A stretch of DNA of 64,000 bases from a virus. A program made the translations under genes and the position numbers. The notes under the pieces are model-generated. The model was not told where the DNA came from, searched no databases, and worked only from the letters and a program-made list of their open reading frames with translations. Positions 2,717 to 29,200 of the stretch are shown here, piece by piece (positions within the stretch are counted from its first letter, which is position 1; every line of letters starts with the position of its first letter). The stretch is from IMG/VR virus record IMGVR_UViG_3300047160_010630, positions 1 to 64,000 of that record; one strand, given 5' to 3'.

Positions 2717-3102
2717 TGAGCATCCACACCCACACCGAGGTCTTCTACGGCGTCAAGGTCGAGAAGCACATCCCGGCCGGGGAGAAGACGCTCGTGAGCG
2801 AGTGGCTGTCCGGCCACGCGCTCTGGGGAGAGCTGTACGAGCAGTTCGAGGACGAGGAGGTCGTCGCGCCGAACGTCCGCCGCTGGCTGGCCGGTGGCTA
2901 CAACAGCAAGGACGTGTACCTGGTCATCGACATCGATGGCCACCTGCCCAAGGCGCTGGAGCCGGGCGAGTCCCGGGAGATCGACGTGAGGTTCCAGAAC
3001 ATGTACTTGCCGTGGAACCACATCCTGCGGCAGGCGGCCGAGAGCCTCGGTCTGACTGTCATGCGCGGACCGTTCTGGTTCGTCGTCGCCGACGAGTCCT
3101 GA
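2716..3102 (+). CDS. hypothetical protein
   Basis: TGATG coupling. Confidence 0.8.
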   Translation: MSIHTHTEVFYGVKVEKHIPAGEKTLVSEWLSGHALWGELYEQFEDEEVVAPNVRRWLAGGYNSKDVYLVIDIDGHLPKALEPGESREIDVRFQNMYLPWNHILRQAAESLGLTVMRGPFWFVVADES

Positions 3103-3113
3103 GAGGAGGAGTC

Positions 3114-3332
3114 ATGAGCAAGCTGGAAGACCTGCTGGGCGAGCACACCGCCGAGAAGCAGTACGAGGTGCTGTGCGACCTGGCGGACAGGCTGTGCAAG
3201 CGCATGCAGGAATCGCACGCGTCCGAGGCCGAGAAGCGGGGCATGGGCAGCGCCCTGAGCTTCGTGCAGGGGTACGTGAACGGCTTCGCGCGGATCCAGG
3301 GCCTGGACGACGGCACGGAGGACGAGGACTGA
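3114..3332 (+). CDS. hypothetical protein (MSKLEDLL...)
   Basis: RBS GAGGAGGAG, ATG at 3114. Confidence 0.8.
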   Translation: MSKLEDLLGEHTAEKQYEVLCDLADRLCKRMQESHASEAEKRGMGSALSFVQGYVNGFARIQGLDDGTEDED

Positions 3333-3688: not shown

Positions 3689-3939
3689 TGGCCGACTGGC
3701 ACCACCGCAAGGTGACGACCACGTACTTCGAGTACGTGGTCCCGGTCCCGGAGTGGAGGGCGGCCGGGGCCGACTGGAACCAGGTCCAGCAGGCCCTGAA
3801 CGAGGCTGTCCGGGGCTACCGGGTCGAGTACAAGCTGACCTCCCACCAGGAGCCGCCGGACGATGCCATCAAGGTGTGCATCGAGGGCGACGAGATCGTG
3901 ATCCGGTTCCGCGAGGACATCAGCAAGCTCACGTTCTGA
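3688..3939 (+). CDS. hypothetical protein (MADWHHRK...)
   Basis: TGATG coupling. Confidence 0.75.
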   Translation: MADWHHRKVTTTYFEYVVPVPEWRAAGADWNQVQQALNEAVRGYRVEYKLTSHQEPPDDAIKVCIEGDEIVIRFREDISKLTF

Positions 3940-3950
3940 GGAGGAGCACC

Positions 3951-4649
3951 GTGGAAGAGAATTTCCGCCTCTCGCGGAATGCCAAGAACAAGCACGACGT
4001 GGTGTACATCCCGCGCGTGAGGTACGTCAAGGCCGAGTCCGGGTCCGTGGAACTCGGCATGGACCGGGAAACGGTGGACGACCTGCACCACTACCTGGGC
4101 GAGTGGCTGGGAGTCTTCGAGGCCGACGAGGCCGAGGACGCCCGGCTGCTGGCCGACGAGGGCTTCGTGGAGAGCCTGGCACAGCTTCGTGTTGATCCGG
4201 AGGGCACTCTGGCGAAGACGCTGGACGGGGAACTGTGCGCGACGTGCGGGCACGCCGATGCGCACGACGGCGCGGGGATCGGCGTCTGCCGGGCGAAGAG
4301 CTGCGGCTGCGACGGTCCGGTGGCCGAAAACGCTAAGCCGACGGCCAAGGACGTCCTGCACCTGTGCGACCGCTGCCACGGGGAGGTCTACACCTTCCCG
4401 ACGAACCTGGTCAGCCTTGGCCAGCGTCTCCTGTCCCGAACGGACAGGTGGGCCTCGTTCACGTACACCGACCACGGTGGCGACGAGCTGCTGATCTCCG
4501 ACGACATCGGCCCCAAGGACGGTGAGGTCGGCGTGCACATCGTAACGCCGCCGGACGGCGTCTACATTCCCCTGAACGCCCTGGAGGCCGTGGTCGACGC
4601 GATCCGCGTGTCCGGCCTGCGCGCGGTGGAGGCGAACGAGAATGAGTGA
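3951..4649 (+). CDS. hypothetical Cys/His-containing protein
   Basis: RBS GAGGAGGAG, GTG at 3951. Confidence 0.75.
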   Translation: MEENFRLSRNAKNKHDVVYIPRVRYVKAESGSVELGMDRETVDDLHHYLGEWLGVFEADEAEDARLLADEGFVESLAQLRVDPEGTLAKTLDGELCATCGHADAHDGAGIGVCRAKSCGCDGPVAENAKPTAKDVLHLCDRCHGEVYTFPTNLVSLGQRLLSRTDRWASFTYTDHGGDELLISDDIGPKDGEVGVHIVTPPDGVYIPLNALEAVVDAIRVSGLRAVEANENE

Positions 4650-4806: not shown

Positions 4807-5048
4807 GTAGGAAGATCCCAACCTACGGCCCGCAGCGGGCGTGGTGGTACCGCAACTGGACCGGGTGGCCCGTCGTGTTCGGCGGCGATGAGTTCTGCAA
4901 CCGGACGATCGTCTTCCGGTTCGTGCCGACGCGCATCGCCCTGGTGGTCAACCTGGAGCGGCCCATGCGCAACCGGCCGTGCGACGAGTGCCGGGCCGAC
5001 ATGTCGCCGGACCAGGTACGGGCTATTGCGGGTGTCCACCGCTACTGA
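4803..5048 (+). CDS. hypothetical protein
   Basis: GTGA overlap. Confidence 0.65.
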   Translation: MSRKIPTYGPQRAWWYRNWTGWPVVFGGDEFCNRTIVFRFVPTRIALVVNLERPMRNRPCDECRADMSPDQVRAIAGVHRY

Positions 5049-5054
5049 TAGAGT
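5026..5054 (+). promoter_or_regulatory. sigma70-like promoter for the 5087 gene and probably array 1
   Basis: TTGCGG-N17-TAGAGT. Confidence 0.55.
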
Positions 5055-5086
5055 GTCACTCACGCCGACCAGGAAGAGGAAATCCG

Positions 5087-5413
5087 ATGCTGAAGACCGC
5101 CAGCCTTCGCGACCGCACCCGGGCCAACCGGGCCGCCGCCAAGATCCGCCGCGAGGGCGGCGGCACCCTGGCCACCCACTGCACCGCCAAGGGCCTACGG
5201 CGCCGCCAGGCCAAGTCGGTGGCCGGTTCCCTGCGTGACAAGGCCGAGAAGCTCGGCATCGCGGGCACGCCGGGCGTCTTCTTCCGGGGCGGCTCCAAGC
5301 ACGACGGCAGCCTCTACACCGGCGAAGAGGTCGCCCGGATGGCCCTGATCTACACACCGCGCATCGAGGCGTACAAGATCGTCGCTGCCGAACTGCGCCG
5401 ACTCGCCAACTGA
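5087..5413 (+). CDS. basic hypothetical protein directly upstream of array 1
   Basis: RBS AGGAAGAGGA; its TGA forms the first TGAC of the array. Confidence 0.8.
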   Translation: MLKTASLRDRTRANRAAAKIRREGGGTLATHCTAKGLRRRQAKSVAGSLRDKAEKLGIAGTPGVFFRGGSKHDGSLYTGEEVARMALIYTPRIEAYKIVAAELRRLAN

Positions 5414-6320
5414 CTAGCCACTCCTCGCCAGGCCCGTCCGACCCGAACGACTAGCCAGCACGGCCCTTGCCAGCCCACGCGACTACCCCATCCCGCCCCA
5501 GCCTTTTCTCCCCCCACGACTTTTCTGCCCCAGCCCGGCCCTCCGGCCCGTACGACCACCCATGGCACCTCGTTCCAGCCCGCACGACTACGCGCCCCGC
5601 GACCCCTCCTTCCATGCGACTATCCCGTGCGTCCGTCTCGCTTCGTACGACTTCCCCTGCCAACACGAGCCCAGCCGTCCCAGGACGACAACCCACTCCG
5701 CGCGACAACCCAATCCGGACCGCCTCCCTCCGTACCGGCTCCCCGACAAGCCGGAGCAACGCGTCCCTGGCCCACCCACGCGACTTCCCAGCGCAACGCA
5801 CGACTCCTCGGGCCCTACTACCATTCGAGGCTTTCTGCCCCGTACCGTTCGACATGTCGTCCCACTCCCACGCCCTTCAACCCCCATGACTGCCCGGCCC
5901 GGGACTAAACTCTCCGATTCTGACGACAGTACGTCCCGCAACGATTCTGCCGACAAGCCAATCCTCCCCGACCCTGCGCATACGACAGGCCAGTACGATC
6001 CCGTCCGAACCATACGACTAGCCAGTGCGTATGTATCTGCCCACCCCCTCACGACAAGCCAACCCATCCTTTCTCCGCCCGACCCAGCCCACGCCCAGCG
6101 ACTACCCCCGCCGAACCCCCGCTCACCGGGCCGTACGACAGGCCAACGCTAGCCAGCTCCACCCACGTGACAGGCCAAGCCCCTGCTCCGCACCTCCAGT
6201 CGACATGCCAATCCACGCCAGGCCGCCCCGAACGACAAGCCATTCCCCGCCCAGCCACCCCGCACGACAAGTCGGCCCGGAACGTAGTGGAACAATCCAC
6301 TTCTCACGACTTGCCTGATC
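5411..6320. repeat. array 1: about 26 units YGAC-NN-[NNC-NN]n-N with 5-nt periodicity; candidate guide-RNA array
   Basis: Unit starts 5411,5448,5480,5517,5553,5585,5617,5648,5686,5703,5744,5781,5818 (degenerate CTAC),5850,5887,5924,5951,5983,6015,6052,6099,6136,6168,6201,6233,6265,6307; 21 of 26 lengths fit 7+5n. Confidence 0.9.
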
Positions 6321-6339: not shown

Positions 6340-6368
6340 CCTCTCAGGAACGAGGAAAGGAAAAGAAC

Positions 6369-15349: not shown

Positions 15350-15422
15350 GCCGGATTACCTCAGTTGGCAGAGGATCTGATTCGTAATCAGACTGTCGTC
15401 GGTTCGATTCCGACATCCGGCT
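15350..15422 (+). tRNA. tRNA-Thr(CGT)
   Basis: GCCGGAT/ATCCGGC acceptor; TCTGA-TTCGTAA-TCAGA. Confidence 0.9.
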
Positions 15423-15543
15423 CGCCGGTGCCTGCGGAAACCCTTACTCCGCTCGGTCACCAGGAGGCCAACGTCGATGACCCGCGTGGCGGCTCTCTCG
15501 ATGCAAGATCCTGGTGAGGCGGTAGTAGGTCGCCCCCGGGTTC

Positions 15544-15617
15544 GCCCCTTTAGCTCAGATGGCCAGGGTACCGCTCTTGTAAAGCGGGGGTCGTCGGTTC
15601 GAACCCGACAGGGGGCT
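15544..15617 (+). tRNA. tRNA-Thr(TGT)
   Basis: GCCCCTT/AGGGGGC acceptor; CCGCT-CTTGTAA-AGCGG. Confidence 0.9.
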
Positions 15618-15725
15618 CGGCGGTACAGGTACACAGGCCCTATTAAGAGGCGGGCCGGGCACCCAGGCACAGTCGGCCCATTGATCGCCTGTACTGCTCA
15701 CAGGAACCAAGAGAACGGAAGAGGA

Positions 15726-16289
15726 ATGCGCGACTACCTCCGAGACATGAGCGAGTACCTGGGCGAGGTGGTGCCGGAAGGCGAGTACGTCGCCCAACTG
15801 GTCGCCCAGAACATCGTCAACGTCCTGCTGGAGGAGGACAAGGACCTGCTCATCGGATGGCTCACGCTGAAGGCCCCGGCCATCCTGACGGACGTCATCG
15901 TCCGCCGGTCCAACGGCCGTCGGCACACGCTGAAGATCCACCGGCAGCGGGACGAATTCTCCCAGGCGGCGGAGAAGTACGAGAAGGACCGCGACCCCGC
16001 CCACCTACGGCCCTTCACCTTCGAATACGTGGTCAGTTCCGACAACCTTCGAAGGAAAGTCGGCCAGATGACGGCCGGGGACTGCCTTTTCGTCGCCGAC
16101 ATGTACGACGACCTGGCCCGCAACGCCAAGATGCGCTCCGCCTTCCACCGGGCCGTCGCCCGGCGCCTGGCCCCAGGCCAGACGGTGGAGGATGCGTTCA
16201 CCGAAGAGGCCTACCTGCGGATGTACCACTCCATCGTCGGAGGCGGCCCGACCACGGCCGTGTCGCCCCCGAAGGCCCTGCCCTCCTGA
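15726..16289 (+). CDS. helical hypothetical protein; candidate partner of the Cas7-like protein
   Basis: RBS GGAAGAGGA, ATG at 15726; its TGA begins array 2. Confidence 0.8.
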   Translation: MRDYLRDMSEYLGEVVPEGEYVAQLVAQNIVNVLLEEDKDLLIGWLTLKAPAILTDVIVRRSNGRRHTLKIHRQRDEFSQAAEKYEKDRDPAHLRPFTFEYVVSSDNLRRKVGQMTAGDCLFVADMYDDLARNAKMRSAFHRAVARRLAPGQTVEDAFTEEAYLRMYHSIVGGGPTTAVSPPKALPS

Positions 16290-16582
16290 CTACCCGCCAC
16301 GGCACGGCTCCGCTCAGTTCCGACCGCATGACTTCCCTGTTCTTCCCACCGCCACCCACCGCATCCGACTATCCGCTGCATTCCCACCCGACCCGCCCGA
16401 CTACCCTTCGCGCGCCCAACCCACCCGGCCCACCCGGCTGACTACCTTTTTCACTCCCAGCCCACCCAGCCGACTACCCCTTCCTGTGCCGCCCCTCCCA
16501 ACCCCGACGACTTGCCGTGGTGTCCTCACTCTTCCCGCTCCGCCCGACATCCCGGTCCATACCGTCCCTGCCGACCAACCGT
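16287..16582. repeat. array 2: 8 units YGAC-NN-[NNC-NN]n-N
   Basis: Unit starts 16287,16329,16366,16398,16439,16471,16508,16545,16572; lengths 42,37,32,41,32,37,37,27. Confidence 0.92.
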
Positions 16583-16602
16583 CTAACAGATAAGGAACAG
16601 AT

Positions 16603-17313
16603 ATGACCAGCGTTTTCGCCAGCAGGATGCACCTCGCGTGGCCGCACCGCTTCGAGGGCACCCTGCACGTGCGCAACATCGCCGGTGGCACCCCCTCGGA
16701 CCCGAAGGTTGCCGAGGGCTGGCTGCGGACCAAGCTCACCGACAACCGGGACGACCTGATCCGCGAGAAGGTCGCCGAGGTCATGGTGGAGCGCGGCATC
16801 TCCGTGGAGGAGGCCGCCACCGAAGTCGACCTCCTCAAGCACCTCAACGGCTTCAAGAAGGACGACACCGGCCTCCTCCTGGACGGTCGCTGCCTCATGG
16901 CGGGTATCAAGGAGGGCGCCAACATCGCCCGCGCCTCCGGCAAGCTCAAGGACCGCTGGGGCCTCACCAAGAAGGGCGTGCTGGGCTTCGTCGCCGAGCA
17001 CATCGTCGTCGTGGAGGAAGTCCTCCATCTCTACGTCCCGGAGGAGGACGGCACCAAGCGCTACCTCACCACGCCGGACACCGTGGTCACCTCGTTCCCG
17101 AAGAACCCCCGGACCAACCAGACCGGGATCCAGCACACCGAGGTCGTCCTGGACGCCTTCCTGGACTTCACCGTCCTGACCGACTGGGAGTTCACGGACG
17201 ACGAGTGGGCTATGCTCTGGCTGACCGCCGAGCAGCAGGGTGTCGGTGCCAGTCGGTCCCAGAGCTACGGCCGGTACGAGGTCACCCGCTGGGACAAGGT
17301 GAAGACCGCCTGA
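16603..17313 (+). CDS. stand-alone Cas7/RAMP-like (RRM fold) protein
   Basis: FEGTLHVRNIAGG first strand, LLLDGRCLMAGIKE (cf. IPGSSLKG), TEVV..FLDFTV, C-terminal G-rich loop GVGASRSQSYGRYEV. Confidence 0.8.
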   Translation: MTSVFASRMHLAWPHRFEGTLHVRNIAGGTPSDPKVAEGWLRTKLTDNRDDLIREKVAEVMVERGISVEEAATEVDLLKHLNGFKKDDTGLLLDGRCLMAGIKEGANIARASGKLKDRWGLTKKGVLGFVAEHIVVVEEVLHLYVPEEDGTKRYLTTPDTVVTSFPKNPRTNQTGIQHTEVVLDAFLDFTVLTDWEFTDDEWAMLWLTAEQQGVGASRSQSYGRYEVTRWDKVKTA

Positions 17314-17375: not shown

Positions 17376-17552
17376 ATGGTCTTCATCAAGCTCGCTGCCC
17401 GCAAGGCGTGCGCCATCATGTTCGTCTTCGCGCTGGTGTACGCGATGTTCAACCTGGGGTCCAACGTCCCCTGCGGCATCCTCATGGTCTCCATGGCCGC
17501 CCTCTACCTGATGATCGGCAATCCCCGGAAGAGCTCCGGCAAGAAGCGCTGA
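17376..17552 (+). CDS. 58-aa 2-TM membrane protein, paralog 1
   Basis: RBS GGAGGA; ends IGNPRKSSGKKR. Confidence 0.75.
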   Translation: MVFIKLAARKACAIMFVFALVYAMFNLGSNVPCGILMVSMAALYLMIGNPRKSSGKKR

Positions 17553-17593: not shown

Positions 17594-17770
17594 ATGGTCT
17601 TCCTCAAGACTGTCGCCCGCACCGTGTTCATCGCCCTGTTCTTCCTCGCGCTGGCGAACGACTTCGCCCACCCGAGGAACTACATCGCCTGGGGCATCAT
17701 CATGACCGTGTCCGGGTTCTTCTACCTGGCGATCGGCAATCCCCGGAAGGGTTCCGGCAAGAAGCGCTGA
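17594..17770 (+). CDS. 58-aa 2-TM membrane protein, paralog 2
   Basis: Ends IGNPRKGSGKKR. Confidence 0.75.
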   Translation: MVFLKTVARTVFIALFFLALANDFAHPRNYIAWGIIMTVSGFFYLAIGNPRKGSGKKR

Positions 17771-26257: not shown

Positions 26258-29200
26258 GTGGCCGTGGCCTCGCGCGGTTCCATTATCAGCAGCTTCAAGG
26301 CCATCCCGTCCGGTTCGCGGACCAACTCCATGGGCCAGGGAATGGGCGCCTCCCCGTACTTCGGCGGCTACTCGCCCATGGTCGGCCAGCTGGACACGGG
26401 CCAGGCCGAGGGCACCTGGACCAACGCCTACCGGATGACGCTGCCGCGCCCGGCCGACGACTTCACCAACGGCGCCTTCGGCCCGTTCAGCCCGATCCTG
26501 CCGGTGCCGGTCGACGCGCCGATGGAGGGGTCGGACTTCGCCGACCTGCGCCGGTACGAGTACCAGACCGGCTGGAACCTTCCCACCGGCCTGCCGGGCA
26601 GTGAGGGCCTCAAGCTGGCCTCGTTCGCCACGCTGAAGACGCTGAGCCGCCTGTATTCCGTGGCCCGTGCCTGCATCGAGCTGCGCAAGAAGGAGATCAT
26701 CGGCCTGGAGTGGGACATCATGCCCACCCCGGAGGCCGTCAAGTCGATGCGTGGTTCGCACAAGGCCATCCGTGATTTCGCCAGCCGACGTGCGGCGGCC
26801 ATGAAGTTCTTCCGGAATCCAGATCCGGACTACTTCACGTGGAACACGTGGCTGGACGCCGTCCTGGAGGAGATCTTCGTCACGGACGCGCTCTCCGTCG
26901 TCATCCGGCGCAAGTGGGACAAGAAGAACAAGAGCGGCCTGCTGGGCAGCAATCTGGACTGCCTGGAGCTGGTGGACGGGGCGACCATCCGGCCGCTGCG
27001 CGACCTGCACGGTGCCGCGCCCAGGCCTCCGGCCCCGGCCTACCAGCAGTACCTGTTCGGTGTCCCCCGATCCGACATCTGGAAGATCATCAACGACCAG
27101 GACGTGGAAGAGGGCGGCCTGGCCGGATCCGAGTACAACAACTACCGGGTCAACCAGCTCCTCTACATGCCGACCGTGTCCATGCGTGACACCCCGTACG
27201 GCATGCCGCCGGTCGAACGGGCGCTGATCCCGGTCATGACCGGCCTCCAGCGGCAGAAGTTCCAGAACGACTTCTTCGGCGAGGGCACTGTCCCGGCGGT
27301 CTACATCTCGCCCGGCGGCGCCAACAACAGTATGACGCCGAACCAGATCCGGGAACTCCAGGACGCGCTGAACGCCATTGCCGGTGACCCGGCCTGGAAG
27401 CACAAGATCATCGTCCTCCCGGCCGACTCCAAGGTGCAGCCGCAGCGCCCGCACCCGATCGCCGACCAGTTCGACGAGATCATCATGAGCCAGGTCACCA
27501 TGGCGTTCGACGTCATGCCCACGGAGATCGGAATTGTTCCGAAGGTCACGACGGCGGTCTCCCCGGGCGCGGCACGGACTCTTTCCAAGGAGTCCCAGTC
27601 CGTCCACGACCGGAAGTCGACCAAGGCGTTCCTGAAATTCCTCTCGGACATCCCGAACTATATCCTCCAGATCCTGTGCGGTCAGGACGACATGAGGTTC
27701 GTGTTCGAAGGGATGGAGTCGACCGAGGCCGAGGAGACCAAGACCAAGACCCTGGTCACCCAGGTCAGCGCCGGAATCAAGTCCATCGACGAGGCGCGCG
27801 AGGCGCTCAACCTCCAGCCCTGGGGGCTGCACGAGACCGCCGAGCCCGGCTGGGCCACGCCCGGCGCCGGGTTCATCCCGCTCACCGAGGCCACCATGGC
27901 CCGGCAGACCGGCTACGCGGAAGGGCCTGTCTTCCAGGCTCCGGCGAAGCAGCCGACCCAGCAGCCCGCCACGGCGGCCAGCGGTCAGAGCGCCTCCGTG
28001 CCGTCCATCAAGCCGTCCCCGGCCTCGGTGGCGGCCAAGCCGTCGGCGCCCAAGCCGTCGGCCCCGGCACGGCCCACGGCGCCGCGCAACAAGCCCCCAG
28101 CAGCGCCCACGGGCAGGACAGTGGCCTCGGGGTCGAAGAAGCCGCCGTCGGCGGCCTCCACGACCCGCAAGAAGCCGGGGCAGAGCCAGTCCATCGCCTC
28201 CAACGGGTCGAACGTCAGCGCGGTCGGCCGCAAGCCGTCCACGAAGGTCGCCCTGGTCCTGGACAGCGCGGCGTCGCACGCGCGGCTCCAGGAGCTGGAG
28301 GCCCTGACCCGCATGGCGGCCAGGAAGGGCCGCTCGCTGCGGGACTGGGAGCCGCGCCACCTGGACGCGGAAACAATGGTGGAGATCGGGTTCTTCGAGT
28401 CCTCCGGGATTCCGCTGGCCGACTCCGTCATGCTGGTCAAGCAGCGCCGCACGGTCTCCCTGGGCGGCCAGGTGCGCTGGATCGAAGGGCCGGTCGAGCA
28501 GCGGTACGTCCCGGCCGGTGGCGGCGGTCCCTTCCAAACCCCGCACGACGTCAACGACATCCAGTTCCTTCCCGAGGACACCGGGAGCAGCCCGCGCTCG
28601 CGCCTGCACCTGGCCCCCGAGCCGGTCGGCAACCAGTCGACCCGTGGCCCCCGTGGGACCAATCCCGGAGCGTCGCGGCCGTTTCCCCGGATCCCGGACA
28701 CCGGCCAGTGGCCGGAAGGCGGGATCGGGACCGGCCAGCCGCCGGTGGCCGGTGTCGGCAACCGCGTCAAGAAGGCCGACACGGCGGATGAGGTCTACCA
28801 GCAGCTGCTCAAGAACTTCCCGCCGGAAGCCATTGAGTGGGTGCGCGAAGCCGACTGGATCGGACCTGTTCGCGTGCCCCTGGACGACATCGATTTCGAC
28901 GACAAGGAAAGCTGGGCGACAGCGCACCAGATGGACCACGTCAAGGAGTTCGAGAAGAAGATCGAGGCCGGGAACCCGCCGGACCCGGGTATCGGCATCA
29001 CCCGGCCGGGCCACCGCCGGATCCGGCTCGTGGACGGGCACCACCGGACCACGGCCTACCAGCAGCTGGGAATGCCCGCGCTCCTGTACGTCGGGGCCGT
29101 CAAGGACGACGCCGACATGCGCTGGTCCGAGACCCACTCGTACCAGGTCCACCAGGGCGACGACCCGTCCAACAAGATGTTCGGCGGCCCGGCGGGAATG

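Follow-up and report, generated by a model that had tools for sequence, protein, structure and literature searches.

The 64,000-nucleotide (nt) stretch of viral DNA analyzed in this study (positions 1 to 64,000 of IMG/VR virus record IMGVR_UViG_3300047160_010630, hereafter the window) contains a compact module in which a Cas7-like RAMP gene follows an accessory gene and an array of short C-rich units (Table 1), and comparisons of its sequences and predicted structures indicate that this is a real, well-conserved RNA-guide locus and a member of the VIPR superfamily. A VIPR system, as known from phages, has three parts: Vipr, which is a minimal RAMP; the accessory gene vap; and vrRNAs, which consist of GGY/NN pentamers. 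Such systems read double-stranded DNA (dsDNA) with one base skipped between successive NN pairs and silence rival elements (bioRxiv 10.64898/2026.04.26.720920,.720927). Taken as a whole, the module probably forms an RNA-guided, DNA-binding system of the VIPR family in a high-GC actinophage, consisting of Vipr, a clade-specific accessory gene, two arrays and guides from the C-rich strand. An initial annotation of the window had proposed a non-CRISPR RNA-guided system and had pointed to its likeness to viral systems of a RAMP and GGY/NN repeats under the name VIPR, which do exist and were described as such in 2026 preprints. The proposal of an RNA-guide locus with a solo RAMP was borne out, but this is not a new kind of system, because the locus falls within the superfamily published in 2026 and represents a clade of it.

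The reading is carried by the fold of the RAMP protein, its homology to Vipr, the linkage of gene and array, and the grammar of the pentamers, which are direct observations. All parts of the module lie on the plus strand in the order first described, with every checkable point of that layout correct: an open reading frame (ORF) of 187 amino acids (aa) is followed by a C-rich stretch of 313 nt (16290-16602) holding eight units and then by an ORF of 236 aa. The 236-aa protein is filed in the Vipr superfamily because of a profile-profile match to the Viprs of Escherichia phage SUSP1 and its relatives. When a profile of 53 diverse members of the window family was compared by hhalign with 25 Viprs of the SUSP1 clade, the two aligned with 92.3% probability (E 5.6e-7) over 127 columns spanning helix-1, the thumb and the G-loop, and on this profile evidence and its modeled structure the protein is a member of that superfamily. 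A shallower comparison of the single sequence with the SUSP1 Vipr was not significant, and searches of Pfam and PHROGs and a profile search against PDB sequences gave no match to the protein. An AlphaFold2 model built on 37 homologs (predicted local distance difference test, pLDDT, 81.5) found type VII Cas7, Csm3 and Cmr4 as its top Foldseek matches in the PDB (E ~1e-5), while the top 26 rows of VIA-align were all CRISPR RAMPs, the best being Csm3 (Z 10.6, root-mean-square deviation 4.0 over 159 residues). The top matches in the viral structure library BFVD were solo viral or phage RAMPs. The Cas7/RAMP fold found by Foldseek and VIA-align agrees with the RAMP hallmarks that had been noted at the outset, including the glycine-rich loop GVGASRSQSYGRYEV, which lies at the end of the ORF.

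The residues that contact the guide differ from those of SUSP1 Vipr, whose structure is PDB 36pp. In that protein, H17, D177, R138 and W178 contact G1/G2, with W178 stacking on G2, and R179 holds the pyrimidine Y3 just 5' of NN (bioRxiv 10.64898/2026.04.26.720927). In the hhalign columns, D177 corresponds to A216, W178 to S217 and R138 to T179, and H17 is not aligned; R179, the Y3 contact, is retained as the invariant R218.

The C-rich stretch before the vipr gene is 48% C and 17% G, and the motif YGAC splits the array within it into units of 42, 37, 32, 41, 32, 37, 37 and 27 nt, seven of which fit 7+5n. Each unit opens with a 6-nt handle, CGACTA or something close to it, and the remainder can be read as pentamers, 42 in total. 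Of these, 90% have C at position 3 (P = 5e-8, the local C content being 51%); C also prevails at positions 1 and 2, and positions 4 and 5 are near uniform. The TGA stop codon of the upstream gene forms part of the TGAC of the first handle. This grammar of a YGAC mark and pentamers with a near-invariant third C and two free bases had been described from the window; it was confirmed here and is kept in 275 unique units from about 50 related loci, so the pattern is not due to chance. Neither strand of the array folds as RNA better than shuffled sequences (z 0.12 and -0.51), and no Rfam family, hammerhead included, was found in it. A coding role for the tract was also considered, in which it would encode a proline-rich ORF such as 16192-16593, where a frame of 133 aa is open across the tract. 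Such a role is barely credible: related loci show no protein conservation across the tracts, open frames arise in C-rich DNA from composition alone, and the coding reading was rejected because no reading frame could have a period of 5 nt and units 5n+2 or 5n+3 nt long.

The linkage between gene and array extends well beyond the window. With a cutoff of E <= 1e-3, the window Vipr family comprises 1255 proteins, and clustering at 50% identity gives 444 clusters; its members come from Streptomyces, Streptacidiphilus, Nocardiopsis, Actinomadura, Streptosporangium and many IMG/VR contigs, and 39 homologous loci were found in IMG/VR. In most of a sample of 53 fetched loci (designated below by L numbers), the 400 nt before vipr are about 50% C and carry several CGACT motifs, in line with the expectation that homologs of the RAMP would adjoin similar arrays; in a few loci, such as that of Microcystis phage Mae-JY09, the array lies 3' of the gene. 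The 275 unique units, drawn from about 50 loci, have the consensus C(.91)-G-A-C-T-N followed by (c c C N N)n, where the third C is 87-93% conserved, the first two positions are 52-80% C and the NN positions hold about 0 bits. Their lengths peak at 33, 38, 43, 48 and 53 nt, in 5-nt steps, and the window units are one base shorter (5n+2). Gene and array stay together in about 50 related loci while the NN content differs everywhere, and 279 of 296 units lie on the vipr strand. The suggestion that a C-rich strand co-oriented with the genes and punctuated by GAC might mark a distinct variant holds across the clade. Microcystis phage Mae-JY09 was the only GenBank phage matched by tblastn (30% identity); it has a C-rich CGACTACCC array, about 380 nt long, 3' of the gene on the same strand, followed by a perfect hairpin. 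This locus (L054; PP395641.1, 37713-38976) is high in G+C, and its proteins are annotated as hypothetical. Tracts that had been called G-rich in L022 and L024 proved to be vap-like coding region.

Table 1. Features of the VIPR-like locus and of the second array in the window
Feature	Position	Strand	Description
vap-like accessory gene	15726-16289	+	187 aa, helical; upstream of array and vipr
Guide array 1 (putative)	16287-16590	+	Eight units of 27-42 nt, each YGAC(T/A)N plus 4-7 pentamers c-c-C-N-N; last handle CGACCA just before the ribosome-binding site
vipr gene	16603-17313	+	236-aa Cas7-like RAMP, G-loop GVGASRSQSYGRY
Guide array 2 (putative)	5399-6312	+	About 30 units with the same CGAC(T/A)N plus (c-c-C-N-N)n grammar, mostly 27/32/37/42 nt; no vipr adjoining

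A second array of the same grammar sits 10 kb from vipr. Position 3 is C in 88% of its 134 pentamers (P = 8e-24), and 16 of its 30 units have a length of 5n+2 (P = 5e-5). It opens at the TGA stop codon of ORF 4979-5413 and closes at the ribosome-binding site of a gene starting near 6363. The two flanking genes were examined as possible paralogues of vap and vipr, which was ruled out, the flanking proteins being unrelated to either. Arrays with no neighboring vipr gene are described for VIPR in a further preprint (bioRxiv 10.64898/2026.10.15.759431). Together, the two arrays of the window amount to about 38 guides. Many units of the second array begin with a semi-conserved pentamer, GCCAA or GCCAG. 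Two further skewed tracts of the virus record (95621-95828 and 103819-103939) were examined as additional arrays and are not arrays.

Experimental characterization of VIPR covers two type II systems, those of SUSP1 and of a Pseudomonas fulva prophage, which are G-based and have a 3' tail. The window locus resembles VIPR in its solo minimal RAMP with an RRM core, thumb and G-loop and homology at the profile level, in its two-gene phage module with no cas genes or CRISPR array, in its noncoding arrays built in 5-nt steps of a constant triplet and two hypervariable bases, and in its several guides per locus with a further array elsewhere in the genome. The clade adds another likeness, as a guide from a relative matches an essential gene of rival phages with the skipped base at the wobble position (see below). 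Compared to type II systems, however, the actinobacterial and actinophage clade differs in its triplet, guide length, array layout and accessory gene. Instead of GGY, the gene strand of the window locus carries the triplet c-c-C, which on the opposite strand reads G-g-g and may be written as NNNGG, and only one base of the pentamer is near-invariant. A 6-nt CGACUN punctuation stands in place of a structured or pseudoknotted 3' tail of about 40 nt, and window guides would have 4-7 pentamers (5-12 in relatives) specifying 8-14 bases, compared to 9-16 pentamers and 18-32 bases in type II. Units in the window abut with no spacers; their C-rich strand has the orientation of the genes, and the array occupies the whole interval between stop codon and ribosome-binding site. 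The window protein is about 40 residues longer than SUSP1 Vipr and does not conserve D177, W178 or R138, and its accessory gene has no similarity to vap1. Guide strand and end structure probably differ from type II as well. It is also possible that the window clade is already one of the seven types of the preprint. The initial idea of one pentamer per subunit, a constant triplet as the handle and a gapped NN code matches published VIPR, but for this locus the mechanism would follow from its family.

The closest structural counterparts outside VIPR are the Cas7 backbone subunits (Csm3, Cmr4, type VII Cas7 and Csf2), with which the window protein shares its fold (Z 8-10.6) and the G-rich loop at a sequence identity of only 8-14%. 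Cas7 polymerises along its guide with periodic base flipping. Compared to class 1 CRISPR effectors, the locus has no Cas5, Cas6, Cas8, Cas10, Cas11 or Cas1 and no repeat-spacer array; compared to Cas7, its footprint would be 5 nt rather than 6 nt, and the guide would consist of many short steps rather than one contiguous spacer.

The strand that serves as guide RNA is a separate question, and several features of the arrays make the C-rich gene strand the probable one. In the SUSP1 reference (NC_028808), vipr (28474-29061) and vap1 (28031-28471) both lie on the minus strand, and YNNGG repeats stand on the gene strand both up- and downstream of the genes; it is thus the G-rich strand that runs with the genes in SUSP1, whereas in the window clade the vipr strand carries the C-rich form of 279 of 296 units. 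The TGA stop codon of the upstream gene coincides with the first handle in both window arrays and in seven related loci, and in most loci a distance of 4-35 nt separates the last handle from the vipr start codon. Because the arrays fill this gap from stop to start, there is no room for a promoter or terminator of an antisense transcript. In Mae-JY09, too, the array shares the strand of vipr, and a hairpin comes after it. The rare flipped arrays (L045, L046 and L051) are bordered on their CGACT side by a conserved spacer of 110-136 nt and at the opposite end by a hairpin, and in L051 a hairpin and T-rich run that end the upstream gene directly precede the array. In addition, the invariant base on the C-rich strand is a pyrimidine just 5' of NN, as is the Y3 position whose contact is kept by R218. 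A more specific proposal, somewhat less secure than the choice of strand but still favored, is that the guide is C-based, 5'-CGACUN-(c-c-C-N-N)n, and cut from the operon transcript, with both G pockets exchanged for another grip and the pyrimidine pocket and NN display kept. The flipped arrays belong to a subclade of 43-45% identity in which they lie upstream of vipr in the opposite orientation (L045:1800-2570 and 3939-4424; L046:2550-2870; L051:2100-2440).

An alternative, which we regard as unlikely though worth weighing, is that the system is the same VIPR with its guide on the G-rich minus strand, 5'-(N-N-G-g-g)n-UAGUCG-3', carrying a very short 3' tail and running antisense to vap and vipr; the last G of the tail would double as the first G of the next guide, giving a staggered array. 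Several observations point this way and weigh against the C-rich strand. All characterized VIPRs are G-based with a 3' tail, and the triplet variants listed in the preprint (NNNGG, YNNNG and NNNNG; bioRxiv 10.64898/2026.04.26.720920) are G-based only; abutting arrays that are staggered, with neighbors sharing 1 nt, are also described there. Across the 275 units, the C residues that recur every 5 nt continue into the following unit, the last of them being exactly the first C of its CGACT, and a minus-strand reading of the arrays therefore fits this 1-nt overlap. In L045, one array lies in each orientation between co-oriented genes, so that one of them is antisense whichever strand is the RNA; both genes next to its upstream array lie on the strand on which that array is G-rich. 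Scans of both strands for consensus promoters and terminators were uninformative in this high-GC DNA, and the strand, ends and processing of the RNA are matters that we infer from the analysis. A G-rich guide has several points against it: it would put about 94% of units in antisense orientation to the enclosing genes, with a stop codon in the first handle, 4-35 nt to the next start codon and no space for a promoter or terminator, and the hairpin and T-rich run that end the upstream gene of L051 directly precede its array. A purine, G, would then fill the Y3 slot in most cases, although the protein retains the arginine of its pyrimidine pocket and has other residues in place of D177, W178 and R138, which read G1 and G2; GGGNN runs would presumably also be prone to G-quadruplex folding.

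The published code with one skipped base has some support across the clade from sequence comparison. For 1334 NN pairs from the clade, a model based on codon positions 1 and 2 on both strands gave a log-likelihood of -3676, compared to -3699 for a uniform model and -3741 for all frames, and models in which the NN pair includes the wobble base fitted worse (-3819 and -4086). One skipped base between pairs matches the periodicity of codons. Five long guides from the clade were then compared with IMG/VR, requiring exact matches with one base skipped. A 9-pair guide from a Streptosporangium prophage (L008:2552-2604) had five matches; each is in phase with the peptide AGEIDLIV(D/E), the skipped base falling on the wobble position. 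High-GC phages supply four of the five (L077, L078, L079 and L080), which lie in genes for DnaB-like helicases (DnaB_C, E 1e-77), and the fifth (L076) lies in a short ORF. The same guide read backwards had one match. The comparison of NN pairs with phage and host sequences under controls, which had been suggested at the outset, gave a motif match in DnaB for the guide of a relative but no target above chance for the guides of the window.

These target results also include several points that weigh against an RNA-guided reading of this locus. The DnaB match comes from one guide of a relative, and the other four long guides (12, 10, 9 and 9 pairs) gave 0, 0, 2 and 1 uninformative matches in the exact IMG/VR scan. 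Guides of the window compared with their own 108-kb record at skips of 0-3 scored the same as shuffled guides, and the window guide TG-TT-AC-CA-AC-AT had 18 matches in 301 Streptomyces genomes compared to 13 for the backwards control. The window guides specify only 8-14 bases, which is little for unique targeting. Across the clade, 149 guides compared with all sampled loci and 202 guides compared with vipr genes showed no excess over shuffles. Two guides that matched the vipr genes of other loci with one base skipped, from L028 (14/14; L002:~3102-3122) and L042 (15/16; L018:3133-3155), were set aside as being at chance level. A window guide at 6265-6306 has the NN pairs GG GG GT GG AA AC TC, which spell the Walker A motif GGVG(K/N)TS, and it matches more than 116 viral contigs in IMG/VR, mostly in P-loop ORFs; in the genome of the phage itself, no site with at least 12 of 14 bases was found. 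Because the Walker A motif is so common, this guide names no target. Most proteins matched by this guide are either about 750 aa long with a conserved VLASAGGVGKTS or carry a KGGVGKTS Walker A motif like that of ParA-type ATPases.

It is also conceivable that the C-rich tracts are incidental or act at the level of DNA, as protein-binding iterons, an i-motif, a G-quadruplex or a leader that tunes expression, and that the RAMP has some other RNA partner. This would accommodate the lack of a target for this phage's own units in the searches made and the position of the second array away from any vipr. It is nevertheless very improbable, given that the published grammar of vrRNAs is just such a strict 5-nt register, in which one base is invariant and two are free, that arrays travel with vipr in about 50 loci with different NN content everywhere, that NN use resembles codon positions 1 and 2, and that the guide of a relative spells a DnaB motif in phase. 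Arrays apart from vipr are, moreover, on record for VIPR in the preprint cited above for the second array.

By tblastn, 33 other related loci also carry the vap-like accessory gene, where it precedes both array and vipr in the same orientation. Its 187-aa product is modeled as almost entirely helical, with long helices (AlphaFold2, pLDDT 86). No Pfam or PHROG family was found for this protein and no PDB fold matched its model; a profile search against PDB sequences returned only noise, and no similarity to vap1 of SUSP1 was detected.

The virus record that contains the window is 108 kb long with 65.5% G+C and an estimated completeness of 88% (CheckV). The initial annotation had seen no cas1, cas5, cas6, cas8 or cas10 and no identical direct repeats in the window; in the whole 108-kb record, no Cas1, no RAMP gene other than the one described and no CRISPR-like array or repeats (Tandem Repeats Finder) were found. 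The setting of the locus is viral, with tRNA genes and phage context, and the module is flanked upstream by two tRNA-Thr genes and downstream by two genes for small membrane proteins. A megablast search of the locus against GenBank phages matched only the tRNAs. The tRNA-Thr genes (CGT at 15350-15423 and TGT at 15544-15618) lie on the same strand as the module, and the window contains eight tRNA genes in total. Directly 3' of vipr, the two tandem genes (17376-17552 and ~17595-17770) are paralogous, and each encodes a 58-aa hydrophobic protein that starts with MVF(I/L)K and ends with IGNPRK.SGKKR; a purine-rich ribosome-binding site precedes each.

If the published mechanism applies here, Vipr protomers would polymerise on the guide, one per pentamer, each gripping the constant triplet and presenting the two free bases; successive NN pairs would read dsDNA with one base skipped between pairs, and binding would silence genes of rival phages or other mobile elements. 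In the clade, the C-rich strand would be transcribed together with the genes as vap-array-vipr, and the transcript may be cut at or near each CGACU to give guides of 27-42 nt with the form 5'-CGACUN-(c-c-C-N-N)4-7. The invariant C might then occupy the pyrimidine pocket that holds Y3 in SUSP1, the two G pockets having been remodeled.

VIPR was described only months ago and has been characterized in two proteobacterial type II systems. If the RNA is in fact the G-rich strand, the window locus would be an ordinary further member of the superfamily, with only its antisense, gene-embedded layout to set it apart. If instead the guide is C-based and cut from the operon transcript, this class of guide would have a protein-RNA handle that can be rewritten in nature, and the guide would carry a 5' tag resembling that of CRISPR RNA (crRNA) instead of a 3' tail. 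A large actinobacterial clade of this kind, if read correctly, would show how far a noncontiguous code can vary and would offer a second, orthogonal pair of protein and guide with which repression could be programmed in Streptomyces and other high-GC hosts. Such a clade would also be relevant to the proposal that Cas7 and the 5' handle of crRNAs descend from such systems.

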